The notes beneath the pieces were generated by a model. The model searched no databases and was not told where the DNA came from. It was given only the letters and a program-made list of their open reading frames with translations. A DNA stretch of 64,000 nt from an uncultured Actinomycetes bacterium (GTDB lineage Bacteria; Actinomycetota; Thermoleophilia; RBG-16-64-13): positions 186,614-250,613 of the forward strand of contig CAVQZD010000005.1 of assembly GCA_963718375.1 (NCBI GenBank), given 5' to 3'. This document shows, one piece after another, positions 22,221 through 50,562 of the stretch. Made by a program: the position numbers and the translations under genes. Position 1 is the stretch's first letter. Each line of letters starts with the position of its first letter.

Positions 22221-22413
22221 GGCGCTATTGGCGGGTCCAATGGGTTGTGCTACCCTCACGCTGCTCGACCTTGTGCGTGATCTGGCTCAAACTTGAGCCA
22301 ACACTCATCGCTTGGGAGGCTTGTTCAGCTGGACGGCGAATACCTTCCGGAGACAGCCACCCACCTGCTTAGGCAGGTTCAAGCGCCTGTCAGACACGGC
22401 AAGGTGGAGCACT

Positions 22414-22962
22414 ATGAACGAAGGGGAACATGTGATGCGACGAGTCTACGGCATGTCATTGGCAGCGCTGTGCATCGTCCTCGTATCCGGCCTAGGGGTC
22501 GGGTGCTTCTGGTCCAGCGACGAACCGACGACGGTTGCTTCGGAGACGACGGTCATCTCGTCTGAGAGTTCGAGCACCACCGAAGCGGGCACCACCGCAA
22601 CCAGCGCGGCGGTCACCACGACCGTTCCCTCCAACTTGGTAGACGGTCTTCCTCGGGAATACGTCGAGTCGCTCGGCGAGCGGCCCATGGTGATCCTGTT
22701 CTACGTTCCGGGTGGAGTTGACGATGAGAGGGTGCTGACGTCTGTGCGGGAACTGCAAAGCACGTACAGCAACTATACGTTTCTCATCTATCAGTATGAT
22801 CTGCCGGCGCAATATGGTGTGCTACCCACCGAACTGGGTGGCGTACAGTACCCGCCTCAGGTCATCCTTGTAGATAGGCAAGGTGCTATTCAGAGGGTAT
22901 GGACTGGGTATGTCGACAAAGCTACCCTGAACCAGACACTGCAGGATCTTGGGCGGTATTGA
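22414..22962 (+). CDS. Secreted/lipoprotein-like protein with a Ser/Thr-rich linker and a thioredoxin-fold-like domain that has no CxxC
   Basis: N-terminal signal peptide MRRVYGMSLAALCIVLVSGLGVGC, then a TTVASETTVISSESSSTTEAGTTATSAAVTTT linker and an ~110-aa domain (MVILFYVPGG...ILVDRQGAIQRVWTGYV). The start is uncertain (22312, 22414 or 22435). Confidence 0.45.
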   Translation: MNEGEHVMRRVYGMSLAALCIVLVSGLGVGCFWSSDEPTTVASETTVISSESSSTTEAGTTATSAAVTTTVPSNLVDGLPREYVESLGERPMVILFYVPGGVDDERVLTSVRELQSTYSNYTFLIYQYDLPAQYGVLPTELGGVQYPPQVILVDRQGAIQRVWTGYVDKATLNQTLQDLGRY

Positions 22963-37730: not shown

Positions 37731-38114
37731 TCAGTCTTCAGCTGCCAGGATCGCGTCGTATTCCTCTACGCTCAAGAGCTCGTCGGCCTCGCTTGAATCT
37801 CTCATCTTGATCTTGATGAGCCAGCCATCTTCGTACGGGCTCTGGTTGAGGGTCTCGGGCGCGTCAATGATGTCCTCGTTGATCTCTATGACGGAACCAC
37901 TCATGGGTGCGTACACGTCAGACACGGCCTTCACCGACTCCACCTCTGCGTATGGCGTCCCAACTGTGACGTCCGCGCCTACCTCTGGGAGTTCGATGAA
38001 GACGATATCACCGAGGGTCTTCTGGGCATAGTCGGTGATGCCGAACACGGCGTTATCACCGTCTAGGCGTACCCAGTCGTGCTCCCTGTGGTACTTGAGG
38101 TTCTTAGGGTTCAC
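37731..38114 (-). CDS. gcvH: Glycine cleavage system H protein
   Basis: YHREHDWVRLDGDNAVFGITDYAQKTLGDIVFIELPEVG...AEVESVKAVSDVYAPMSGSV with the lipoyl-lysine motif. 127 aa; GTG start with AAGGAG RBS. Confidence 0.93.
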   Translation of the reverse strand: MNPKNLKYHREHDWVRLDGDNAVFGITDYAQKTLGDIVFIELPEVGADVTVGTPYAEVESVKAVSDVYAPMSGSVIEINEDIIDAPETLNQSPYEDGWLIKIKMRDSSEADELLSVEEYDAILAAED

Positions 38115-38253
38115 CTGCGCTCCTTTCTTGCCATACCCGGCTGCGCGTCATGATAGCACAGCAGTATTCACAGCCACGGTCGCTAAAGTCCGCGCCTTCG
38201 GTCCCCGACTTGTATACTGTTGGTGGCAACGACGAAAGCTGAAGGAGGGCACA

Positions 38254-38757
38254 GTGGCCCGACGCAAGGGACTCGTCATCAGTGACGAGCAGATGAAGGT
38301 TATTGATGGCGTGCTCTCGAAGCTGCAGCATGTGACCGGTTCGCATTTCGTCGCTCTCATCTCCACAAGCGGTCAGCCCATTACGGTATCTCCGGCCGAC
38401 GCTCAATCAGACACGCTGTCGCTGGCCGCGCTCGCTGCGGGTTCTTTCGCGGCCACACGACAATTGGCTGAGGTCCTCAAAGAGCGCGAGTTCACACTCC
38501 TCTTCCACGAGGGCAAGGAGTCGAACCTGCATGTGATCCAAGTCACGGACCAGATCCTCATGCTGCTGACTTTTGGACACGAGACTCAAGTGGGATTGGT
38601 CCGTCTCTACACCACTCGCGCGCTTGCGGTGTTGAAGCCCATCTTTGAGCGTTCCGAGGACAGTGACGGGGAGGCCCGGCTTATCGACCAGGAGTACTCT
38701 CTTGAGGCCGGGACTGCGCTCGATGACCTGTTCAACGAACAGGACTCGGAACAGTAA
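38254..38757 (+). CDS. mglB: Roadblock/LC7-domain protein MglB (GTPase-activating protein for MglA)
   Basis: From GTG 38254 (GAAGGAGGG RBS): KGLVISDEQMKVIDGVLSKLQHVTGSHFVALISTSGQPIT...LSLAALAAGSFAATRQLAEVL...LVRLYTTRALAVLKPIFE, collinear with Myxococcus MglB. An acidic C-terminal tail follows. Confidence 0.8.
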   Translation: MARRKGLVISDEQMKVIDGVLSKLQHVTGSHFVALISTSGQPITVSPADAQSDTLSLAALAAGSFAATRQLAEVLKEREFTLLFHEGKESNLHVIQVTDQILMLLTFGHETQVGLVRLYTTRALAVLKPIFERSEDSDGEARLIDQEYSLEAGTALDDLFNEQDSEQ

Positions 38758-38770
38758 CGGGGGAGCTACT

Positions 38771-39355
38771 GTGGCACTCATCAACCTAGCGGCCAGGGAG
38801 ATCAACTACAAGATCGTCTACTATGGCTGCGGTCTCTGCGGGAAGACTACGAACATCCAGTACATCCATCGACGGGTCAACCCTGCCGCTCGGGGTCGCC
38901 TAGTCAGCATCGCTACGGAAGAAGAGCGCACCCTGTACTTCGACTTCCTTCCGCTCTCACTGGGGACGGTGAAGGGCCTTCGTACCAGGTTCCATCTGTA
39001 CACCGTTCCAGGTCAGTCGTTCTACAATGCATCGCGAAAGCTGGTGTTGCAGGGCGTCGACGGTATCGTCTTCGTCGCGGACAGCCAGGTATCGAGGCTC
39101 GATGAGAACGTGGACAGCTATCTGAACCTGTGGGACAACCTGCGATCGCAGAATGAGGACCTCTCGAGCCTGGGGATGGTCCTGCAGATGAACAAGCGTG
39201 ATCTAGGCAACATATTCAGCGTGAGCGATCTAACAGAACTCCTCAACCACACGGGATCTCCTGTGTTGGAGGCGTGTGCGCTCACAGGGGTGGGTGTGTT
39301 TGAGACGCTGAAGACCGTCTGCAAGCAAGTGATAGCCAAGAGTTCTCGCTCCTGA
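38771..39355 (+). CDS. mglA: Ras-like small GTPase MglA (motility/polarity regulator)
   Basis: From GTG 38771: [24 protein letters not shown]...[53 protein letters not shown]...NKRDL...GVGVFETLK aligns essentially residue-for-residue with M. xanthus MglA ([19 protein letters not shown]...[33 protein letters not shown]). Confidence 0.9.
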   Translation: [194 protein letters not shown]

Positions 39356-39393
39356 CCTAGCGGCCTCGTGTAGGGCTCGCTGGAGATAGTAAG

Positions 39394-39467
39394 TCGGGAC
39401 GGCCGGATTTGAACCGGCGACCTTCCGGCCCCCAGCCGGATGCGCTACCAAACTACGCCACGTCCCG
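39394..39467 (-). tRNA. tRNA-Pro (anticodon GGG)
   Basis: Minus-strand sequence CGGGACGUGGCGUAGUUUGGUAGCGCAUCCGGCUGGGGGCCGGAAGGUCGCCGGUUCAAAUCCGGCCGUCCCGA. The 7-bp acceptor stem CGGGACG/CGUCCCG closes the usual four-arm cloverleaf, with T-loop TTCAAAT and anticodon loop CU-GGG-GG. No encoded CCA. Confidence 0.9.
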
Positions 39468-39505
39468 ATGCGCTGCCAGATTATAGCGCGCCCTCAGCGG
39501 TCGCA

Positions 39506-40196
39506 CTACAGGGCGCCGGCGTCTGTGTCGGAGCCGGGCAGGTCCGCAGTGTCCTCGTCCTTCGGACTCCACGGGAACACCACCTTCGGTTCGGTCCCCT
39601 GCAGGAGGCGCTTCATGTTCCCACGATGAGCCCACAGCACCACGGCAGCCATGAGCGTGCACGCGACGACGTAGGCCAGCGGAACCGCCCAGACTCCAGT
39701 GCCATAGCGGTAGAGAAGGCCCGCCAGTACGGGCAGTGAGATCGTGCACGTGATCGACGCTATAGAGACTGTACGTGTCACCAGCAGGATGACAACGAAG
39801 AGCACTAGCAGACAGGCCATGGGCAAAGGCAGCATGGCGACGGCAGCGCCGGCACCGGTGGCCAGCCCCTTCCCTCCCCTACCCCTGAGAAAGACAGAGA
39901 ACGTGTGCCCGATGACCGTGGCGAACGCCACGAGCACGGTGACCACAGGGTTGCTGAGATATCGGGCGAGGACCACCGGGATCACTCCCTTGAGCACGTC
40001 GCACACTAGGACTACTATGCCCAAGTCGTTTTCCCAGCACACGAAAGGCGTTGGTAGTACCTGGGTTCCCGCTCCCATGTTCTCGAAGGTCGATGCCTTT
40101 GATCGCTTTGCCCAGGAAGACACTGGGAGACAACGAGCCCATCAGGTAGCCGAACAACACGAGGCCTACGGCTGTCAAAACGGACTCCTGGCTCAC
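39506..40196 (-). CDS. plsY: Glycerol-3-phosphate acyltransferase PlsY, with one frameshift near 40016-40024
   Basis: ORF 39879..40196 reads MSQESVLTAVGLVLFGYLMGSLSPSVFLGKAIKGIDLREHGSGNPGTTNAFRVLGKRLG. ORF 39506..40123 continues IVVLVCDVLKGVIPVVLARYL...FLRGRGGKGLATGAGA. An extra G in the run cttGGGcat fuses the two. Confidence 0.85.
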
Positions 40197-41512
40197 GAAT
40201 ACCTCTCCTCTTTACCCTCGAAGTCGATGACCAACGGCACACCCTCGAGCGCGTACTCTTGTCGCAGCTGGTTCTCCAGGAAGTATGCGTAAGGCTTGTT
40301 CACTAATGCGCGTGCGTTGACCATGATCTTGAAGCGTGGTGGCGCTTGCCCATATTGGACCACGTAGAAGGTCTTGATGGCTTTGCCGCCCTTGGACGCC
40401 GAGGGGTGCTTGCCTTGCAGTGAACTGAGCCAGCGATTGAGTTCCGCCGTGGGGATCCTGCCCGCGTACTTGTTGTAGAGACCCCTGGCCAGCGGCAGTA
40501 TGCGGTCGATACCGCGCCCGCTGACAGCGGATACTGTCAGATGTGGGGGCTTCATCTGCACACGTGCCCCGACGCGTTCGACAGCCATATCAAGGTCGAT
40601 GGTCGCGATGTCCCATTTGTTGAAAAGGATCGCTGTGGCGCACTTCGCCCTCTGTGCTTCGTAAGCGACCTGGAGGTCGAGGTCGGTGAGACCTTCGCTG
40701 GCGTCCACTACTACCAGGGCCACATCGCTGCGTTCCAGTGCTTTGAGAGCCCGGAGCGAACTGAAGTACTCGACGTCGGTAGTCGTTCTCTTGCCCGGCC
40801 TCCGCAGTCCCGCCGTGTCCACCAATACGAGCGGCTCACCCTCGTGTACCAACCCTGTGTCTATGGCGTCCCGGGTGGTACCAGGGATAGCCGAGACTAT
40901 CGTGCGCGAGTTCCCCAGAAGCGCATTGAGCAGTGAGCTCTTGCCCACATTAGGTCTGCCAACGATGGCGACGCGCATGGGCATGGTCTCTTCGTCTTCG
41001 TCAGTCTCGGGCGGCAAGGCGTCCACGATCTTGTCGAGCAGGTCCCCCACGCCCAGTCCGTGCTCGGCTGAGATACCAACCGGCTCTCCTAGGCCCAGAC
41101 CCCAGTAGTCGTGCAGCATCCCTTGCGCGACTTTCGTGTCCTGCTTGTTGACAGCCAGCAGCACGGGCACGCCGGAGCGCCGCAGCAGGTCAGCGATCTC
41201 CTTGTCTTGGGGCACCACGCCCGTCTTGCCTTCGACTACGAACACCGCGACGGCCGCATCGGTGACCGCAACGCGGGCCTGCGTCCTCACTTCATCGCTC
41301 AGCGGTTGATCGCTCTGCAGATCGATGCCTCCGGTATCGACAGTGATGAACCGGCGACCATTCCACTCCCCCACTCCCTCTTTGCGATCACGAGTGACAC
41401 CAGCCTCTGGAGCTACAACTGCGTCGCGAGTTCCGGTGATGCGGTTGTATAACGTGGATTTGCCCACGTTGGGGTAACCGATTATGGCGACACGAGGCAT
41501 CCCACTGGTCAT
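40193..41512 (-). CDS. der: Ribosome-associated GTPase Der/EngA (tandem GTPase domains plus a KH-like domain)
   Basis: Two G domains (VAIIGYPNVGKSTLYN...DTGG; VAIVGRPNVGKSSLLN...DTAG) and the C-terminal KH-like domain. 439 aa, intact. Confidence 0.95.
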   Translation of the reverse strand: MTSGMPRVAIIGYPNVGKSTLYNRITGTRDAVVAPEAGVTRDRKEGVGEWNGRRFITVDTGGIDLQSDQPLSDEVRTQARVAVTDAAVAVFVVEGKTGVVPQDKEIADLLRRSGVPVLLAVNKQDTKVAQGMLHDYWGLGLGEPVGISAEHGLGVGDLLDKIVDALPPETDEDEETMPMRVAIVGRPNVGKSSLLNALLGNSRTIVSAIPGTTRDAIDTGLVHEGEPLVLVDTAGLRRPGKRTTTDVEYFSSLRALKALERSDVALVVVDASEGLTDLDLQVAYEAQRAKCATAILFNKWDIATIDLDMAVERVGARVQMKPPHLTVSAVSGRGIDRILPLARGLYNKYAGRIPTAELNRWLSSLQGKHPSASKGGKAIKTFYVVQYGQAPPRFKIMVNARALVNKPYAYFLENQLRQEYALEGVPLVIDFEGKEERYS

Positions 41513-42357
41513 GCTTGCGTCTCCTCAAGGGCTTGCACCACTGCATCTATCTGGTCGGATGGCGTTGACGCGCCGGCCGTCACCCCCACTACGTTCGCTC
41601 CGTTGAACCAAGCGGCTTGGAGTTCGTCCGCTGACTCCACATGGTGAGTGCGCGGTTGGCGCTGCTTACAGAGCTCGGCGAGTCTGCGAGTATTGCCCGA
41701 CTCCCTCCCACCCACGACGACGACCACATCGACGTCAGAGGCCATTTCCAGGGCCGCACTCTGTCGCACCTCGGTGGCATTGCAGATGGTGTTGTGCACC
41801 AGCAACTGCCTGGCCACCGGGGCCAGGGTGGCTACCAGCTCGGCCAGTCGCTCCTTGGACTGCGTCGTCTGTACCACTACACCCAGCTTGGAGCTCGGCA
41901 GACTCTCCGGCAGGTCGGCGGCAGACTCAACGACCAACGACTTCTCGCCCGCGTATGACTTCAGGGCCAGGACCTCCGGATGGTCCCGATCACCGAGGAT
42001 GATGACGTAGTAGCCATCCTGGGAGAGGCGAGCGGCCTTATCCTGGGCCGAGGTGACGAAAGGACAAGTCGCGTCGACTAGACTGACGGACGAGAGCGCG
42101 AGCTCCTCTCGCACTGACTTCGGCACCCCGTGCGAGCGAAGTATCACCGTTCCCTCAGGCGCTTGCGCCGGCTCGGACACTACCCCGACGCCCTTGTCGT
42201 GCAGGTCTGACACCACGCTGGGGTTGTGGATGAGCGGTCCCAGGGTGTTGACGGGCTTCTGCGCCCCAGCCGCAGCATCCAGTGTGAGTTGGAGTGCCCT
42301 TTCCACTCCGGGGCAGAAGCCGGCGCTGTCAGATACGCGAACGATCAGTGGACTCAT
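41509..42357 (-). CDS. ispH: 4-hydroxy-3-methylbut-2-enyl diphosphate reductase
   Basis: MSPLIVRVSDSAGFCPGVERAL...GPLIHNPSV...HGV...ATCPFVT...TICNAT conserved-Cys and His pattern. The ATG at 42357 shares one base with the stop of the upstream cmk::plsC ORF. Confidence 0.88.
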   Translation of the reverse strand: MSPLIVRVSDSAGFCPGVERALQLTLDAAAGAQKPVNTLGPLIHNPSVVSDLHDKGVGVVSEPAQAPEGTVILRSHGVPKSVREELALSSVSLVDATCPFVTSAQDKAARLSQDGYYVIILGDRDHPEVLALKSYAGEKSLVVESAADLPESLPSSKLGVVVQTTQSKERLAELVATLAPVARQLLVHNTICNATEVRQSAALEMASDVDVVVVVGGRESGNTRRLAELCKQRQPRTHHVESADELQAAWFNGANVVGVTAGASTPSDQIDAVVQALEETQA

Positions 42358-43682
42358 CACCTTTCTACCGGAGTCGCCAAGAGCGTCTCTAGCGCTGCCT
42401 GCACTCGTTCCGTGACTATGCGCGCTTTGTCGGCGCGCGACACCTCGGGCCCCGGCATCACGATGGGCGGCCCAAAGAGTAAGTCCACTTTCGGGAAGTG
42501 TGGGTAGCCATGCTTGAAGCACAGATCGGTGCCGCGCAGCACGGCCGGCACAGTGACCACACCCTCCCTCAGGGAGAAGAGGCTGATCCCGGGCCTCAGT
42601 TCTCCAAGGCCCGGCCCCTTATGGCAGTGCCCTTCGGGGAAGAGCCCGAGGACTCCTTCCGCGTCCAGGATCTCGATAGCCTTCTTGATCGCAGCGCGGT
42701 CCACCTCTCCCCTACTCACCGGAAAGGTGCCGAATCTCTCCATCGCCCAGGCCAATGGCTTGAACTTCCAGAGTTCCACTTTGGCCATGTAGTGGATCTG
42801 CCGAGGGGCGTTGATGCCAAGAAAGAAAGGGTCGGTCATGGCCTTGTGATTGCAGGCCACGATGACCGGTCCGGCTAAGGGGAAGTTCTCCACCCCGACC
42901 ACCCGCATACGGTAGAAGAACCGCCAGGTCGGGCCCAGTACCGCGTAGATCATGCGGTAGAGGAAGGTGTCCAGGGGACCCTTCTGCAGGTGCGACAGTC
43001 TCCATCGGGGATATCTCTTCTGTTGGGACTGGCGCGCGATGCCGCACACGGTCTCAATGACCTCTTCGATGGCCATAGAGGTCGTATCCACTTCAATGGC
43101 GTCCTCCGCCTTGCGGAGTGGCGCGGTCTCTCTTCCCGAGTCCAGAGCATCCCTGGTCATAATCTCCTTGGCCAAGTCTTCGGCGGACGTGTGAACGCCC
43201 TGGGCTTCGAGCTGCGCCTGGCGCCTGCGTGCTCTCTCCTCAACGCTCGCCGTCAGGAATATCTTGACCTCAGCGTCAGGGACTACCACGGTGCCTAGGT
43301 CTCTACCTTCAAGCACCACGTTGCCCCGATGCGCCTCATCACGCTGTCTGACTGTCAGCACGTCTCTCACTGACGGCTCCGCGGAGACCGCCGACACATT
43401 CTTGGAGACGACCGGACCTCGGATCTCCAGACTGATCTCTCTGTCACCCACGAATGCCTTGGTCAGATCATCATCCTGAACTTGGAACCGTAGATCAGCC
43501 GCGTCAGCAAGCGAGGCGACCTCCGCAAGGCGATCGGGCACGAGCCCAGCCTCGAGCGCCAGTAGGGTCACGGCTCGGTACATCGCACCCGTATCCAGGT
43601 AGCGCATACCCAGCCTCTTGGCCACTTCTCTCGCGATGGTGCTCTTGCCCGACCCGGCTGGGCCGTCTATGGCGATGATCAT
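42357..43682 (-). CDS. cmk: Apparent in-frame fusion of cytidylate kinase (N-terminal ~222 aa) and 1-acyl-sn-glycerol-3-phosphate acyltransferase PlsC-like domain (C-terminal ~200 aa)
   Basis: N-terminus MIIAIDGPAGSGKSTIAREVAKRLGMRYLDTGAMYRAV...EGRDLGTVV...KIFLTASVEERARRR (Cmk). C-terminus LAGPVIVACNHKAMTDPFFLG...GTFPVSRG...GVLGLFPEGHCH has acyltransferase motifs I-III. 441 aa in one frame with no internal stop. Confidence 0.75.
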   Translation of the reverse strand: MIIAIDGPAGSGKSTIAREVAKRLGMRYLDTGAMYRAVTLLALEAGLVPDRLAEVASLADAADLRFQVQDDDLTKAFVGDREISLEIRGPVVSKNVSAVSAEPSVRDVLTVRQRDEAHRGNVVLEGRDLGTVVVPDAEVKIFLTASVEERARRRQAQLEAQGVHTSAEDLAKEIMTRDALDSGRETAPLRKAEDAIEVDTTSMAIEEVIETVCGIARQSQQKRYPRWRLSHLQKGPLDTFLYRMIYAVLGPTWRFFYRMRVVGVENFPLAGPVIVACNHKAMTDPFFLGINAPRQIHYMAKVELWKFKPLAWAMERFGTFPVSRGEVDRAAIKKAIEILDAEGVLGLFPEGHCHKGPGLGELRPGISLFSLREGVVTVPAVLRGTDLCFKHGYPHFPKVDLLFGPPIVMPGPEVSRADKARIVTERVQAALETLLATPVER

Positions 43683-43707
43683 AAGCGCATTGCTCCTGAG
43701 TCGGGTT

Positions 43708-45057
43708 TCAGCTCTCGGGCGCCGAGCGCCCGCCCAGTTCGCCGAGAGTCTCGCGGAACCCTGGAAACGAGACAGCCATACACTCCAGGTCGTCGATGCG
43801 GACCGATGCAGACGATGCGCAGCCGGCTACCGCACCGACCATGGCCAGGCGGTGATCGGCGTAGGTCCGCACGTCTCCCCCCTCCCAGCCCTGCGGTCTA
43901 CCTTCGATCTCGAGGCCGTCAGGGCGTTGTCCCACCTTTACCCCCAGGGATACCAGAAGATGTGCCATCGCGTTCAGGCGGTCGCTCTCCTTGACCCTGA
44001 GTTCCTGGGCACCAGTGACGGTCGACTTGCCCCTCGCTTTGGCCGCCGCCAGCATGAACGCTGGCAGCTCGTCTATGAGGTTCGGGACTTCGGAGGGGTC
44101 TATGTCAGTAGCCGCCAACTGAGAGTACCGGGCAGTGATGCGCCCGACCGGCTCTTCGGCCATAGGATCAGAGACCTCCACGGTCAGGTCAGCACCCATG
44201 CGCCCCAGCGCCATCAAGAGCCCCGTACGAGTCGGATTCAGGCCGACTCCCTCAACCGTCACTTCCGACCCAGGCACCAGCAGAGCCGCAACCAGTAGGA
44301 AAGCCGCAGAACTGAAGTCCCCGGGCACGTAGATTCTGGACAGCGCAAGCTTCTCCACCGGCCACACGCGGACAGTCCCGGGGCCGCCCTGCTCCCCCTC
44401 GCGTTCGACACGGCCTCCACCTTGTCTGATCATGCGCTCCGTATGATCTCGCGACGAGCCTGGCTCGCTGACGCTGGTCGGGCCGTCGGCACGAAGTCCG
44501 GCCATCAGGAGACATGACTTCACTTGGGCTGAGGCGACCTCCAACACGTGGTCGACGCCTCGAGGGCGACCCCCTCTGATGGTGATAGGCGGTAGAGTGT
44601 CGGACGCCCGACCCGCGACATGGACCCCCATGGCCGCAAGTGGCCTCAGCACCCTGCCCATCGGTCGGCGCCTGATGCTCCCATCGCCCGTCAATATGGT
44701 GAGAAAGTCGCGACCGGCCACGACCCCTGGCAACAGCCGAATGAGCGTTCCGGAGTTGGCTACGTCGATGACATCCTCTGGCTCCTTCAGCCCCTCCCAT
44801 CCGGCTCCGTCGACAGTCAGGCCTGCGTCGTGCTCGCATATCGCCACGCCCAGTGTGCGAACGGCTCTCAGCGTGGCAAGGGTATCGGCGGAACGCAAGA
44901 AGCCCGTTATCTCGACAGGGCCATCGCTGACGGCACCCAGCAGCACGGCACGGTGCGAGATCGATTTGTCACCCGGCACTCGGACGGTCCCCCGAAGCCC
45001 ATCCGTGGCGGGCAAGAAGACCCCTGAGGATGATGTCTCGACTGTGGATGCTCTCAT
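43708..45057 (-). CDS. aroA: 3-phosphoshikimate 1-carboxyvinyltransferase (EPSP synthase)
   Basis: VPGDKSISHRAVLLGAV...LRSADTLATL...LVANSGTLIRLL...DHRLAMVGAVAG. 449 aa. Confidence 0.93.
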   Translation of the reverse strand: MRASTVETSSSGVFLPATDGLRGTVRVPGDKSISHRAVLLGAVSDGPVEITGFLRSADTLATLRAVRTLGVAICEHDAGLTVDGAGWEGLKEPEDVIDVANSGTLIRLLPGVVAGRDFLTILTGDGSIRRRPMGRVLRPLAAMGVHVAGRASDTLPPITIRGGRPRGVDHVLEVASAQVKSCLLMAGLRADGPTSVSEPGSSRDHTERMIRQGGGRVEREGEQGGPGTVRVWPVEKLALSRIYVPGDFSSAAFLLVAALLVPGSEVTVEGVGLNPTRTGLLMALGRMGADLTVEVSDPMAEEPVGRITARYSQLAATDIDPSEVPNLIDELPAFMLAAAKARGKSTVTGAQELRVKESDRLNAMAHLLVSLGVKVGQRPDGLEIEGRPQGWEGGDVRTYADHRLAMVGAVAGCASSASVRIDDLECMAVSFPGFRETLGELGGRSAPES

Positions 45058-46220
45058 TCGACCGTATCCCTGCTGTCGGCTACTCTGGATGGATATCCGA
45101 GGCTTGTGAGCAACTTCTCGGCTCTCTCTGCCACATCCTCACCGGATACGAATATCTCGAGATCTCCACCGACGCTGCGGCTCATGTGATGCAGAGTGAG
45201 ATCCTCCACGTTGATGCCGGCTTCGCCCAGAGCGGCCAACACTTCGGCAATGACCCCCGGCACGTCGGAAACGCGCACGGTCACCCTGTATAGAGTACCC
45301 GGAGCGATGTCGGCGAGCTCAAGCATCTCTTCCCGATAGCCGGCCGCGGACTCGATCGATCTCATGAGCTCTTCGGTGTCGCAGGATTCCAGACTCATGG
45401 AGAAATCCCTGAGCATGTCAGAGACAGCCCGCGCAGACTCGGCCAGGGCCTCTCTGTTCTCCAAGAAGATATCCCGCCACATGGGCGGATTGGCCCCCGC
45501 CACCCGCGTGAGGTCGGTGAAGCTGGGACCGACCCATTGAAGTGCTCGTTTGCCTCCGACGTCGAAGCGTCCCGCGTGCTGCATGAGCGTGTTGGCGAGC
45601 ACGTGAGGCAAGTGACTGATCACCGCCAATAGACGGTCATGAACCGCCGCATCGATGTGAGTGGCTCGCGCCCCCACGTCTGACACGAACGCCTGGAGCA
45701 TCGCATAGAGTTTGGGAAAGGCTTCTTCAGTGCTGCACAAGAAGTACGTGGCGTCCTCGAAGAGATCGGCGCGGGCGTACTGCACCCCTGAGTCGGCCGC
45801 ACCACATATCGGGTGGCCGCCGATGAAGATGGAACGCGCTTCCGCAGACAAGGCTCCCATGATGGCCGACTTGGTGCTGCCCATGTCGGTGATGAGCCGA
45901 GGGCGTGGCTCTGCGCCGGCGCACTCCTCAACGAGCGCAGCGATACTGCGCACTGGAGTCGAGACGACCACAAGGTCCGCATAGGCCGCAGCTTCCGCAG
46001 GGCTCGAAGCCGCCTCGGTTATGACGCCCGCTGCAATAGCTTGCTCAAGCGCTTGGGCATCAGTGTCAAACCCTATGACCTCATCGACCGCGGCGCGGGC
46101 CTGAGCGGCCATGGCCAGGCTCCCGCCCATCATGCCTACACCTACTATGGCAAGTCTGTGAACCCCGCTATGTCCGCGATCGCTCGTCACTCGGCCTAGC
46201 CCAGGGTCTTGCCGACCCAC
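45054..46220 (-). CDS. tyrA: Prephenate dehydrogenase with a C-terminal ACT domain
   Basis: Rossmann fold LAIVGVGMMGGSLAMAA and the PDH core (MGSTKSAI...GHPICG). C-terminal ACT (YRVTVRVSDVPGVIAEVLAALGEAGINVEDL). The 5' end overlaps the aroG stop, so the start is uncertain. Confidence 0.88.
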   Translation of the reverse strand: MGRQDPGLGRVTSDRGHSGVHRLAIVGVGMMGGSLAMAAQARAAVDEVIGFDTDAQALEQAIAAGVITEAASSPAEAAAYADLVVVSTPVRSIAALVEECAGAEPRPRLITDMGSTKSAIMGALSAEARSIFIGGHPICGAADSGVQYARADLFEDATYFLCSTEEAFPKLYAMLQAFVSDVGARATHIDAAVHDRLLAVISHLPHVLANTLMQHAGRFDVGGKRALQWVGPSFTDLTRVAGANPPMWRDIFLENREALAESARAVSDMLRDFSMSLESCDTEELMRSIESAAGYREEMLELADIAPGTLYRVTVRVSDVPGVIAEVLAALGEAGINVEDLTLHHMSRSVGGDLEIFVSGEDVAERAEKLLTSLGYPSRVADSRDTVE

Positions 46221-47233
46221 TCGACCATGGCCTTGACACGGGCAGTGACCGCCGTGAATTGGCGCGGGTCGAGCGATTGGGCGCCGTCCGAAAGCGCTGT
46301 CTCCGGCGTCGGATGCATCTCGATCATCAGGCCATCGGCGCCGGCAGCGATCGCTGCCAGAGAAAGCGGTTCGACCAGGTCGGTCTTTCCCGCCGCATGG
46401 CTGGGATCGACAACCACAGGCAGATGACTCCGCTGCTTGATGATAGGGATGGCGGATATGTCCAGGGTGTTGCGAGTCGCCGTCTCGAACGTGCGTATTC
46501 CTCGCTCACACAAGATGACTTGTTCGTTGCCCTCTTTGACGATGTACTCGGCAGCCATGAGCAGCTCTTCGATGGTGGCGGCAAGACCCCGCTTCAACAG
46601 TATCGGCCGGTCGACCTCGCCGACGGCTGAGAGCAGCTGGAAGTTCTGCATATTGCGGGCACCTATCTGGATGATGTCGGAGTACTCCGCAACAGCGGCC
46701 AAGTGACGCGGGTCCATGAGCTCAGTGACTATCGGAAGCCCGGTGGACTCACGAGCTTCGGCGAGTATCTCGAGCCCCTCCACGCCCAACCCCTGGAAGG
46801 CGTAGGGTGAAGTCCTCGGCTTGTAGGCACCACCGCGCAGCATGGTGGCCCCCGCGGCCTTGACCTGAGCGGCCGCGAGCAACAATTGCTCCTTGCTCTC
46901 CACCGAGCAGGGTCCGGCGATCAGCCCCACGTGTCCGCCGCCCAGGCTGGTACCTCCCACGGTGACTACCGTGTCGCTGCGCCGAAACTCTCTGCTGACC
47001 AGCTTGTAGGGCTTGAGGATCGGCACGACCTTGTCGACGCCGGGGTATGCCTCCAAGGGAAGTCCGGCGATGACATCACGTTCCCCCACGACACCTATCA
47101 CCGTCACAACATCACTGGTGGACACACGACCTGCCGCGCCGGCCTCCTCCAGGAGTTCGATGATGCGAGCGACGTCCTCCGACGAAGCGGTCTCTTGCAT
47201 GACGATCATCATCTCGGTGCTTGCACCTTCCAT
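46196..47233 (-). CDS. aroG: 3-deoxy-7-phosphoheptulonate (DAHP) synthase, type I-beta, with an N-terminal ferredoxin-like/ACT regulatory domain
   Basis: ~70-aa N-terminal regulatory domain (MIVMQETASSEDVARIIELLEEAG), then the KDO8PS-like core: GPCSVES...KPRTSPYAFQGLG...NMQNF...DPSHAAG. Confidence 0.88.
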   Translation of the reverse strand: MEGASTEMMIVMQETASSEDVARIIELLEEAGAAGRVSTSDVVTVIGVVGERDVIAGLPLEAYPGVDKVVPILKPYKLVSREFRRSDTVVTVGGTSLGGGHVGLIAGPCSVESKEQLLLAAAQVKAAGATMLRGGAYKPRTSPYAFQGLGVEGLEILAEARESTGLPIVTELMDPRHLAAVAEYSDIIQIGARNMQNFQLLSAVGEVDRPILLKRGLAATIEELLMAAEYIVKEGNEQVILCERGIRTFETATRNTLDISAIPIIKQRSHLPVVVDPSHAAGKTDLVEPLSLAAIAAGADGLMIEMHPTPETALSDGAQSLDPRQFTAVTARVKAMVEWVGKTLG

Positions 47234-47234
47234 C

Positions 47235-48395
47235 TCAGCTCTCCGGGCTCAGGGACCCAGCGTCGATCGCGGTGTCCTCCACTTGCGCTTCTACGTGCGC
47301 CTTACCAGCGCTGATGTCCTCCATCGCGCCTATGAACGTGTCATTGTCTTGCTTGCTGCCAATGGTAACGCGAATCCAGCCGGGGCAGTCCATCGCATAG
47401 CCCGATCTTGTCAGTATCCCGCGTCTAAGCAGTTCTTGACCTACCTCCGGGCCAGGTATGTCGAATCCCTCAACACCGACCAACAGGAAGTTGGCCTGCC
47501 CGTTGTGGGAGGTGATGCCAAGCTCCTGTAACGCAGCAGCCATCCTCTCCTTTTCGGACGCGATCACAGTTCGGCGCTCCGCCACAAGCTCGGGATGTCT
47601 AAGGGACTCTGCCGCGGCCACCTGGGCCAAAGAGTCGACGTTGAAAGGTTGACGCAGTTTATCCAAAGCCTTCATGAGCTCCGGATCTCCGATGGCATAC
47701 CCTATCCGGAGGCCGGCGAGGCCGTAGATCTTCGAGAAGGTGCGCAATACGACGAGGTTGGTGAAGTCCTTCACCCAGCTCGCGGTCTCCTCATGCAGTG
47801 GTGCAGTCACAAATTCAACATAGGCTTCGTCCAATGCCACCACCACGTCGCCAGGTATTCGCTCCAAGAACGCGCGTATCGAGGCCGTCTGCAGGTAGCC
47901 TCCGGTGGGATTGTTGGGGTTGCATATGAGCAGAAGGCTTGTGTCGGGCGTGATGGCCGCCTCCATCGCCTCGAGATCGAGTTGCAGGCCATCCAACGGG
48001 ACAGCCGTGAATGGACCACCGTGCGCGACCGCTATGGCCCTGTACATGACGAACGATGGGTGCGGGAACACGAAGTGCTGCTCAGGGTTGAGCAGGGCCT
48101 GGCCAAGAAGCATCAGGAGCTCGCAGGACCCGTTACCGAAGCACAAGTGCTCAGAGTCCACACCCAAACGACTAGCCAGAAGCGCCTTGAGACCTGAGCA
48201 AGAGCCGTCGGGGTAGCGGTTCAGATGCTCCAGCGCAGACGCCAGAGCCTCCACTACCTCAGGAAAAGGGCCCCACGCTACCTCGTTGGCCGCCATCTCG
48301 TTGATATGGTCTTGACCATAGCGCTCTCTTATCTCTGCCAAAGAGGGGCCGGCCCGATAGGGCTTCATCTTCTCCAGCGCAGGATCGAACTTCAT
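47235..48395 (-). CDS. hisC: Histidinol-phosphate/aromatic aminotransferase (HisC family) embedded in the aromatic operon
   Basis: Class II aminotransferase motifs: NPNNPTG, the PLP-lysine region (RTFSKIYGLAGLRIGYAIG) and NANEVAWGP. 386 aa. hisC-tyrA-aroA adjacency as in the Bacillus aromatic supraoperon. Confidence 0.85.
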   Translation of the reverse strand: MKFDPALEKMKPYRAGPSLAEIRERYGQDHINEMAANEVAWGPFPEVVEALASALEHLNRYPDGSCSGLKALLASRLGVDSEHLCFGNGSCELLMLLGQALLNPEQHFVFPHPSFVMYRAIAVAHGGPFTAVPLDGLQLDLEAMEAAITPDTSLLLICNPNNPTGGYLQTASIRAFLERIPGDVVVALDEAYVEFVTAPLHEETASWVKDFTNLVVLRTFSKIYGLAGLRIGYAIGDPELMKALDKLRQPFNVDSLAQVAAAESLRHPELVAERRTVIASEKERMAAALQELGITSHNGQANFLLVGVEGFDIPGPEVGQELLRRGILTRSGYAMDCPGWIRVTIGSKQDNDTFIGAMEDISAGKAHVEAQVEDTAIDAGSLSPES

Positions 48396-48448
48396 AGCGT
48401 TGCTCCGCTCGGCAGGATCGACTACAGGAGCAACAAGTATAGAGCACC

Positions 48449-49177
48449 CTAGAGCAGGCCAGCCACGGACCGGAGCTCTCTGAGCTCACCATCCGTAAGT
48501 CGACGCACCTGGCCCATCGCAAGTCCCTCGTCAGTAAGGGATGCGAAGCGCCCCCGATGCAGCGCGATCACCCGATGACCCATCGCATCGAACATGCGTC
48601 GGACCTGACGCTTGCGACCTTCGCGTATCGTGACCGAGATCGTGGTGACGTTACCGTTGTCTCCACTTGGCTCCGACATCCGAGTCACCATAGCAGGCGA
48701 TGTGACCGCTTCCTCCAACTTCACGCCGCGCCGCATGCTCTCCAGGTGCGATTCGGAGACAGCGCCGCGCACTTTGACGACGTACTCCTTTTCCACGTGG
48801 TAGCGAGGATGAAGTAGACGCTCCATCAGTAGTCCGTCGTTCGTGAGCAGCACTAGTCCAGTGCTGTTGAGGTCAAGGCGGCCCACAGGGAACACCCGTG
48901 CCTCGGTGGGAACGTGGTCGGTGACAGTCGGCCTGTTTCGCGCATCCACCACAGCGCTGAGTACCCCCAGTGGCTTGTTCAGCAGCCAATACTCCTTCGG
49001 CTGGATCTCCACCGGCCGCCCGTCCAGATAGACCTGGTCTTCTTCCGGGTCTACCGTAGCTCCCAGTGTGGCTACCTGCTCCCCCACAGCCACACGACCG
49101 GCCCGTATCAACTCTTCGCAGTTGCGCCGAGAACCCAGCCCGGCTTCGGCGAGCAGCTTCTGCAGCCTTACTCTCAC
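48449..49177 (-). CDS. rluB: 23S rRNA pseudouridine synthase (RluB/RsuA family) with an N-terminal S4 domain
   Basis: S4 domain (MRVRLQKLLAEAGLGSRRNCEELIRAGRVAVG) plus the catalytic motif VFPVGRLDLNSTGLVLLTNDG. 242 aa. Confidence 0.9.
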   Translation of the reverse strand: MRVRLQKLLAEAGLGSRRNCEELIRAGRVAVGEQVATLGATVDPEEDQVYLDGRPVEIQPKEYWLLNKPLGVLSAVVDARNRPTVTDHVPTEARVFPVGRLDLNSTGLVLLTNDGLLMERLLHPRYHVEKEYVVKVRGAVSESHLESMRRGVKLEEAVTSPAMVTRMSEPSGDNGNVTTISVTIREGRKRQVRRMFDAMGHRVIALHRGRFASLTDEGLAMGQVRRLTDGELRELRSVAGLL

Positions 49178-49803
49178 TCCGGCGTGGTGAGTAGGCCCAG
49201 TCGGCGTCTGAGTTCCGCCTTGGCATCGTCAGTCAGTTCGAAGTCCTCCAGGGGCGGCAGCGCGCCCAGGTCAGCGAGACCGAACATCGCCTCGAAACGA
49301 CCCGTGGTCGCGTAGAGCACCGCCCCACCCTTGGTCTGCGTGCGTCCGACGTCCTGGATGAGCTGCCTATCCAAAAGACTCCGCATCGGAGAGTCCGAGT
49401 TGACTCCGCGGATCTCCGCGATCTGAGGCCTCGTCACAGGCTGCAGATAGGCGATGATCGCCAGGCATTCAACCGCCGCCGGTGAAAGTCGACCGGCTTC
49501 ACATGGGATCTCGAACAAGGCTTTCACAGCACTTTCGGACAACGGATTCGTCCGAAAGGCCCACCCTCCAGCCAGCCGCACAAGCTCGAAGCCCCTGTCG
49601 CCCTCGGGCGGGAACTCCCTGCCGAGCTCTTCTAGGGTCTGCTCCACAACACGCCGTGCAGAGCCGTCGGTCACCCCAACAGCCTGGAGGATGGTGTCGA
49701 CAGTCAGCGGCTCCCCAGCAGCGAATAGCAGAGCCTCGACGTCTCGCCTGAGATCCGCCAGGCGCAAGCCCGTCGGTGCCTGTGTGGACGTTTCCTCGAT
49801 CAT
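49174..49803 (-). CDS. scpB: Segregation and condensation protein B
   Basis: VEALLFAAGEPLTVDTILQ... winged-helix repeats. scpA-scpB-rluB order as in actinobacteria and Firmicutes. Confidence 0.88.
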   Translation of the reverse strand: MIEETSTQAPTGLRLADLRRDVEALLFAAGEPLTVDTILQAVGVTDGSARRVVEQTLEELGREFPPEGDRGFELVRLAGGWAFRTNPLSESAVKALFEIPCEAGRLSPAAVECLAIIAYLQPVTRPQIAEIRGVNSDSPMRSLLDRQLIQDVGRTQTKGGAVLYATTGRFEAMFGLADLGALPPLEDFELTDDAKAELRRRLGLLTTPE

Positions 49804-50562
49804 GCTCCCTCTCCGCTATGTGTCCCATTACCGCTCTTCACCAGGATATCTCCGAAGACGCGAGCCTGTTGTACCTTTATTTCTCCGCGAGAAAGCATGT
49901 CCAGAAGAGCGAACACTGACAGAGCCTGCACTAGTGGCTGCTCGGCCCCGAACACTTTGTTGAACGAGAAACCGCCCTCTGAGGAAAGAAGACCCTTGAT
50001 AAGGCTGATCTGTCTGCGAAGCTCGACCTTGGTCTCCGCGAGATGGGAGGTGTCTGGGGGCGAGTGGTTGCTCAGCACCCTCTGTAGGCTGTCTCTGAGT
50101 TCGGCAGGATCACCTGTGCCCGCTATGTCCTGCACTGAGGGGAGCATCATTCTCGCTTGACCGAGAGCGCCCCGCATCATGGAGGCGGAGCTGGCCTCAC
50201 CACGCTCGCGAATATGCAGGGCTGCAGCCTTGAACTGGCTGTAGACGAACAGTCTCTCCAGGAGTTGGTCGCGGGCCTGCTCGGGGGTGAGCTCCTCTTC
50301 TTCGAAGGGCAAGAAGGCTTCAGGCAGCAGCATGCGCGACTTGATCTCGATCAGAAGGCTCATGAGCAACAGGAACTCGGTCATGTCGTCCCAATAACCG
50401 ATGACGCCCGCCGCTTCCATGTCCTCCAAATAGGCGGTGATCACCTCCACGAGAGGTACTTCTAGAAGATCGACCTCTTCCCTCATGATCAGCGAGAGGA
50501 GCAGGTCAAACGGGCCCTGGTAGACCTCAAGATCGAGCTCTGGAGATCTCAGGGAGAGTCAC
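49800..50562 (-). CDS. scpA: Segregation and condensation protein A. The N-terminus is probably frameshifted, and the start is uncertain.
   Basis: ORF 49800..50486 begins MREEVDLLEVPLVEVI. In-frame upstream codons read ELDLEVYQGPFDLLLSLI (a typical ScpA N-terminus) with no ATG/GTG. The neighbouring frame holds GTG-TLPEISRARS*, suggesting a single-base indel near 50520-50560. Confidence 0.75.

Follow-up and report, generated by a model that had tools for sequence, protein, structure and literature searches.

Does a single reading frame that runs from a cytidylate kinase (Cmk) into a PlsC-like acyltransferase encode one genuine protein, is such an architecture new, and what could be gained by joining these two enzymes? 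These questions are raised by an ORF in the 64-kb stretch of DNA analysed here (the window). The cmk::plsC gene very probably encodes a genuine, evolutionarily conserved bifunctional protein, with predicted activities, which arose by fusion of adjacent, co-transcribed cmk and plsC genes.

One reading frame and its two domains

The earlier note had described an ORF carrying both domains without giving its strand; the ORF is present on the minus strand (Table 1). Direct reading of the sequence bears out the two motifs named for it, one in each domain, and agrees with the statement that no frameshift is needed, there being zero stop codons or frameshifts between the Cmk and acyltransferase domains. 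A Shine-Dalgarno sequence, AGGAG, precedes the ATG at 43682 by 10 nt, and the N-terminus MIIAIDGPAGSGKST is common to 13 of the 14 homologues in a 14-sequence alignment. A protein of 100% identity (P0001) can already be found in NCBI/ENA. In Pfam, Cytidylate_kin (PF02224) covers aa 3-216 (E 8e-72; 241.8 bits against a gathering score of 26; profile positions 1-209 of 211) and Acyltransferase (PF01553) covers aa 258-381 (E 3.7e-19; 69.3 bits against a gathering score of 23; profile positions 1-130 of 132).

Table 1. The fusion gene, its domains and motifs, and the neighbouring genes (nt, position in the window; aa, residue of the fusion protein)
Feature	Residues	Position	Strand	Basis or remark
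cmk::plsC fusion ORF	441 aa	42357..43682	-	ATG start, TGA stop
Cmk domain	aa 1-220	43023..43682	-	PF02224, TIGR00017, PDB Cmk matches, Foldseek
P-loop GPAGSGKST	aa 7-15	43638-43664	-	Read directly from sequence
Linker, QSQQKRYPRWRLSHLQKGPLD	~aa 221-239	42966..43022	-	Alignments, pN/pS, AF2
PlsC/LPLAT-family acyltransferase domain	aa 240-441	42360..42965	-	PF01553, 5KYM match
Amphipathic helix	aa 241-258		-	Start of acyltransferase domain
NHKAMTDP	aa 278-285	42831-42848 (H-x4-D codons)	-	CAC AAG GCC ATG ACC GAC
FPEG block	aa 348-351	42630-42641	-	
aroA (EPSP synthase)		43708..45057	-	PF00275 8.4e-110; upstream neighbour of fusion, 25-nt gap
ispH	282 aa	41509..42357	-	PF02401 3.2e-89
der (engA) GTPase		40193..41512	-	Two MMR_HSR1 domains and a KH_dom-like domain
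plsY (acyl-phosphate:G3P acyltransferase)		39506..40196	-	PF02660 8.6e-30; 1-nt frameshift

The proposed neighbourhood, with aroA before the fusion and ispH, der and plsY after it, was recovered with Pfam, and all of its genes lie on the minus strand. The ispH ATG and the TGA stop of the fusion have one base in common (TGATG at 42355-42359), and this overlap suggests translational coupling of the two genes. Similarly, der begins with an ATG that overlaps the stop of ispH (ATGA), and plsY with a GTG that overlaps that of der. A promoter and terminator scan of 39300-45200 returned near-chance consensus matches only, which fits one long operon and is uninformative. In a close relative (L081, 75% identity) the cluster has an identical gene order, and its ispH, too, is called with 282 aa at the corresponding place.

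Judged by sequence, the fusion begins with an orthodox (d)CMP kinase, predicted to convert ATP and CMP or dCMP to ADP and CDP or dCDP. The fusion protein scores 233.3 bits with the Cmk equivalog model TIGR00017 of NCBIfam, above the cut-off of 135.55, and PDB Cmk chains match this half at E 1e-41 to 1e-55. In the AF2 model (pLDDT 88), Foldseek superimposes it on 2h92, 3r20, 4die and 1kdo with TM 0.90-0.93 and an rmsd of ~2 Å; this is the NMP-kinase fold with its Cmk-specific insert. Across 69 fused homologues there is no variation in the P-loop G7-T15 or at R36, S97, R106, R127, D128, R177, D181 and R184. The CMP-binding residues of Escherichia coli Cmk, R41, S101, R110, R131, D132, R181, D185 and R188, are displaced from these by +4/+5, and this offset to 1kdo numbering agrees with the alignment of residues 2-219 to 7-223. 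Residues 1-220 are thus alike in sequence and fold to the standalone enzymes (TIGR00017; 1KDO from E. coli, 2H92 from Staphylococcus aureus, 3R20 from Mycobacterium smegmatis and 1Q3T from Streptococcus pneumoniae), with which the P-loop and the CMP-binding Arg and Asp residues are shared. However, the solved Cmks are single-domain soluble proteins of ~210-250 aa, whereas the fusion runs on into the acyltransferase without a stop.

The C-terminal half is, from its motifs, a PlsC/LPLAT-family acyltransferase with a putatively catalytic HX4D dyad that is intact and an FPEG block; N278, H279, D284, P285 and F348-G351 are invariant in the 69 fused homologues. PlsC of Thermotoga maritima (5KYM) is the sole solved relative by sequence (3.5e-6; NHKAMTD against NHQSLMD, FPEG against FPEG), and its chain B is also the closest acyltransferase structure by fold in Foldseek (E 2.5e-7, probability 1.00, 203 columns, TM 0.60 when target-normalised). 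The alpha/beta LPLAT core, HX4D and FPEG align between the two proteins, but identity is only 22-25%, and residues 1-57 of 5KYM are without a sequence counterpart, their place being taken in the fusion by the linker and one amphipathic helix. Taken together, the two halves look in both sequence and fold like active enzymes, and both are predicted to be active.

The specificity of the acyltransferase has to be considered separately. With the LPAAT-specific model TIGR00530 the protein scores 69.3 bits, below the cut-off of 102.95, so the domain is filed here as LPLAT-family and its LPAAT role is drawn from the operon shared with plsY. From this gene context we infer that it is the cell's lysophosphatidate sn-2 acyltransferase, acting after PlsY, whose gene lies three genes downstream. 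Another LPLAT activity, such as an actinobacterial PlsM-like G3P sn-2 acyltransferase or a lysolipid-remodelling or aminolipid acyltransferase in place of the housekeeping LPAAT, would accord with the sub-threshold score, with comparable partial matches to acyl-ACP:phospholipid acyltransferase (Aas-type) models, with a weak match to OlsA and with the many specificities spanned by PF01553; unusual acylation orders are, moreover, known in Actinobacteria. We nevertheless regard it as rather improbable. The operon also encodes PlsY, whose presence implies that sn-1 LPA is made and has to be acylated by a PlsC; 5KYM, the top solved match in sequence and in fold alike, is a bona fide PlsC; and phyla that use the PlsX/PlsY/PlsC route have kept this gene beside cmk. 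Nor does the 64-kb window hold a further PF01553-like ORF; domain HMMs run at maximum sensitivity found no second plsC or cmk in it.

Integrity of the junction and spread of the fusion

A fusion read from one assembly might be spurious: if the long-read assembly is error-prone, the cmk stop could have been lost to a sequencing or indel error, joining what are really two genes. The window itself gives reason to ask, as a 1-nt homopolymer frameshift, evident on three-frame translation, interrupts its plsY, where a GGG run near 40020-40024 has gained one G. Related MAGs are frameshifted too, L081 in plsY (at positions other than those of the window) and L011 in cmk, and in other lineages a single in-frame stop is the sole difference between two genes and a fusion. 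Against this, more than 25 homologues of 67-76% identity from independent assemblies are exactly 441 aa long and without a stop. The linker also behaves as coding sequence under purifying selection. Compared with L081, aa 217-257 align without gaps and give pN/pS 0.217/0.684, similar to the flanking Cmk (0.164/0.625) and acyltransferase (0.148/0.759) domains, so the junction appears to be kept in frame under protein-level constraint. Within the linker, D238 is invariant and P236 nearly so in the 69 fused homologues; the 14-sequence alignment shows no variation at W227. The AF2 pLDDT of the linker is ~81-90, and in some homologues up to ~60 aa are inserted just upstream of its conserved stretch. 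Judged by these sequence comparisons, the fusion is not an assembly artefact, and we consider an error at the cmk stop extremely improbable.

The earlier note had taken the Cmk-PlsC arrangement for a non-standard architecture and had named frequent occurrence in the lineage as the outcome that would speak against this. The fusion is common in the lineage, and the claim is overturned. The 120 best matches among 5.8 billion proteins share 51-76% identity with the window protein and stem from independent JGI, ENA, NCBI and Logan assemblies; each one is full length and carries PF02224 as well as PF01553. A similar picture emerged from the best 150 matches of an exhaustive HMMER search against 1.84 billion representatives clustered at 50% identity. 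In ~115 of them, proteins of 400-550 aa, a single alignment stretch starts at the N-terminus of Cmk and extends far into the acyltransferase; for a further 26 the alignment is in two stretches, with P0254 among these confirmed as two-domain, and only ~6 are single-domain proteins. The named relatives among the best matches include 'Thermoleophilia bacterium' and 'Actinobacteria bacterium RBG_16_64_13'; together with L001 and L011 they place the lineage in an uncultured clade of Actinomycetota.

Species-representative genomes, scanned by domain HMMs on stop-to-stop ORFs, extend the range. Single-ORF fusions occur in Actinomycetota MAGs (L001, L007, L013 and L018, and L011 with its frameshift), in Atopobium (L057), in Krumholzibacteriota (L016), Phycisphaerae (L051, L056) and Fibrobacteraceae (L068), and in unclassified bacteria (L012, L059). 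An Atopobium-seeded search of RefSeq and UniRef added cultured Atopobiaceae, namely Olegusella massiliensis, Olsenella intestinalis, O. urininfantis and Atopobium fossor, whose fusion proteins are named only "(d)CMP kinase". The Cmk::PlsC fusion is therefore ordinary and widespread, with hundreds of examples already in public databases.

The Atopobiaceae '(d)CMP kinase' proteins (475-517 aa) count among the nearest known counterparts. They carry the same PF02224 and PF01553 domains in a single ORF and in the same place upstream of ispH. However, the L057 protein shares only ~32% identity with the window protein over the matched region, the linker is much longer than that of the window protein (~80 aa in L057), and the N-terminal motif of the PlsC part is of the Coriobacteriia type, DDYYDTALVDFPAP. 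From these sequence features, the Atopobiaceae fusion is probably an event independent of the one in the window. Three NCBIfam families, PanC/Cmk (NF010004), AroA/Cmk (NF008816) and Cmk/Der (NF007071), likewise join Cmk to a chromosomal neighbour. The Cmk half of the window protein matches their Cmk portions, but their partner domain is other than an acyltransferase, and none of the NCBIfam models matched by the window protein covers the Cmk::acyltransferase combination. Foldseek found no solved chain spanning both domains. A literature search turned up no description or characterisation of a Cmk-PlsC fusion; in the Propionibacterium papers that it returned, the two enzymes simply appear as products of separate genes. 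Catalogued in databases, the architecture is thus unstudied and under-annotated.

Probable recurrent joining of neighbouring genes

Where the two genes are separate, they often adjoin directly and in the same order. This is so in Collinsella (including C. aerofaciens), other Coriobacteriia, Clostridia and Peptoniphilus, and again in Poribacteria, Planctomycetota, Zixibacteria, Omnitrophota and Ignavibacteriales. Collinsella, other Coriobacteriia and related Actinomycetota share the order cmk-plsC-ispH-der-plsY, Clostridia share cmk-plsC-ispH, and the larger cluster (tyrA-aroA-)cmk-plsC-ispH-der-plsY recurs widely. Other lineages have cmk without an adjacent plsC (L062, L069-L074, L076-L077 and L080).

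The unfused junctions are minimal and in frame, consisting of a stop, 0-1 codon and a start, as in "...LINQRR*PMRLF..." (Collinsella) and "...EERDG*VFYRF..." (L004). One substitution would therefore suffice to fuse cmk and plsC, and recurrent fusion in different phyla would follow from the fact that the unfused genes adjoin, some of them one in-frame stop apart. Among the non-Collinsella loci whose junctions were examined, 18 of 21 unfused junctions are in frame. Programmed read-through was considered in view of this excess, but the excess was rejected as evidence for it, as it probably stems from the ranking of loci, which would enrich in-frame pairs strongly: the out-of-frame pairs L066, L075 and L079 rank low among Cmk-only matches despite good E-values, which indicates ranking by the best single tblastn segment.

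A neighbour-joining tree on the concatenated domains, which is crude, follows taxonomy, and in it fused forms fall into about six clades, each with unfused sisters. The Atopobium fusion retains the Coriobacteriia-type PlsC N-terminal motif of the unfused Collinsella genes. Both the tree and this retained motif point to recurrent fusion. The most likely course of events would be the fusion of adjacent, co-transcribed cmk and plsC within an old conserved cluster, tyrA-aroA-cmk-plsC-ispH-der-plsY, in which loss of one in-frame stop by a single substitution would join the two genes, and this has probably been repeated across phyla. Cmk has also fused with other neighbours, as AroA::Cmk in L017 and TyrA::Cmk in L076.

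Possible membrane attachment and coupling of the two activities

No transmembrane segment is predicted in the fusion protein. The highest hydrophobic moment in the protein (0.59) is found at aa 241-258, and the AF2 model places one helix, aa 240-256, between the linker and the acyltransferase core. T. maritima PlsC, by contrast, reportedly has a two-helix N-terminal membrane motif, according to the 5KYM study. Since a transmembrane segment is lacking and the strongest amphipathic helix stands at the entry to the acyltransferase, monotopic membrane binding through aa 241-258 is suggested by prediction and model, which would tether the kinase to the membrane. The acyltransferase half would then lie on the cytoplasmic face, with the kinase held there at a fixed 1:1 stoichiometry. 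The relative orientation of the Cmk and acyltransferase domains is left undefined by the model, as its pTM is 0.60.

Phosphatidate, the product of PlsC, is converted with CTP to CDP-diacylglycerol by CdsA; PgsA and PssA release CMP, which Cmk phosphorylates to CDP and Ndk to CTP. The earlier note had linked CMP/CDP supply to phospholipid synthesis, including CDP-diacylglycerol, through the gene cluster. The cluster is as described there, while the link to CDP-diacylglycerol supply is a reasonable supposition. The Cmk and PlsC reactions do not follow one another directly, and any benefit would therefore come from co-expression or co-localisation and not from direct channelling. CMP released by enzymes that consume CDP-diacylglycerol would be re-phosphorylated near the site where phosphatidate and CDP-diacylglycerol are made, and such pathway-level coupling is the likely selective rationale. 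That the fusion brings a metabolic benefit is, however, conjecture, and it may be selectively near-neutral.

A stronger reading would make the protein part of a dedicated membrane metabolon, a strongly adaptive and unrecognised coupling in which PlsC-docked Cmk regenerates CDP, and hence CTP, directly for CdsA. Several independent fusions, the adjacency of cmk and plsC across many phyla, and a linker with conserved residues and a fairly confident structure are consistent with this. But the Cmk and PlsC reactions are at least three steps apart, and ndk and cdsA are absent from the cluster, here as in L081. Fusions of Cmk to AroA, TyrA, Der and PanC point instead to opportunistic joining of neighbours, and in many lineages cmk stands without plsC beside it. 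A dedicated metabolon is possible, though we think it doubtful. Much the same tentative standing is given to an undescribed module in which membrane-tethered Cmk would recycle CMP from the CDP-diacylglycerol-consuming synthases at the site of phosphatidate, coupling the CTP supply of CdsA to membrane growth.

The fusion reveals no new enzyme, mechanism or system; with the architecture itself already known, it matters mainly for annotation. In RefSeq, UniRef and JGI the fusion proteins go by '(d)CMP kinase' or 'cytidylate kinase' only, and naming by the kinase alone makes the acyltransferase half invisible by name. Reconstructions that rely on product names may score plsC as missing in these lineages. 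For the biology of the family, the recurrent fusion gives a modest "Rosetta-stone" hint of co-regulated CMP salvage and phospholipid synthesis.

The minus-strand gene string and its surroundings

The cmk::plsC fusion lies within a long string of minus-strand genes, in the order scpA, scpB, rluB-like, hisC-like aminotransferase, DAHP synthase, tyrA, aroA, cmk::plsC, ispH, der and plsY, in which the stops and starts of the genes overlap or nearly overlap. A scan of part of the string (39300-45200) revealed neither a convincing internal promoter nor a convincing internal terminator. The string is closed by a tRNA-Pro (GGG) gene directly downstream of plsY, and L081, a 75%-identical relative, is fully syntenic with it. 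The window also contains a 6S RNA gene and a gene pair that resembles a Roadblock/LC7 protein and a small Ras/Arf-like GTPase of the MglB/MglA type; L081 has a matching pair in the same place, with recorded Pfam matches to Robl_LC7 and Arf (weak).

Features of the window and of homologous loci in other genomes (L numbers)
Feature	Sequence	Position	Strand	Remark
6S (SsrS) RNA	window	22260-22414	+	Rfam RF00013, 62.8 bits vs gathering score 46.4
Roadblock/LC7-like and small Ras/Arf-like GTPase genes	window	38035-38757 and 38645-39355	both +	divergently oriented
tRNA-Pro (GGG)	window	39393-39467	-	
plsY	window	39506-40196	-	two frames; shift near 40020-40024
Gene string	window	39506-50486	-	about 11 kb
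AroA::Cmk	L017	4660-6642		
TyrA::Cmk	L076	1701-3266		
Der::PlsY	L063	9535-11736		
Long ispH ORFs	L005, L015, L064, L066, L067			about 2 kb
In-frame cmk/plsC pairs, single-stop gap	L019-L055 (Collinsella), L003, L004, L005, L010, L014, L015, L017, L060, L061, L063-L065, L067, L071			

The break in plsY

One surplus G within a GGG run breaks plsY in the window (CTT GGG CAT... vs the expected CTT GGC ATA GTA...), which looks like a long-read homopolymer indel error and not pseudogenisation. The plsY gene of L081 has frameshifts of its own, at positions unlike those in the window, and in L011, an Actinomycetota MAG, the frameshift falls in cmk.

Junctions and fusions between neighbouring genes

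Many lineages with separate cmk and plsC genes have both in one frame, the gap consisting of one stop codon plus 0-1 codons. The surplus of such pairs among the best 80 loci, from which the junctions were sampled, is probably an effect of locus ranking, because these loci were apparently ranked by their best single tblastn segment. The same cluster yields further fusions between neighbours, namely AroA::Cmk, TyrA::Cmk and Der::PlsY. The IspH ORFs of several Clostridia-type loci are long, probably through the joining of ispH to a gene downstream. In one homologue, P0118 (542 aa), the C-terminus is followed by what resembles the N-terminus of IspH (MTIRISTSAGFCWGVERALELA).
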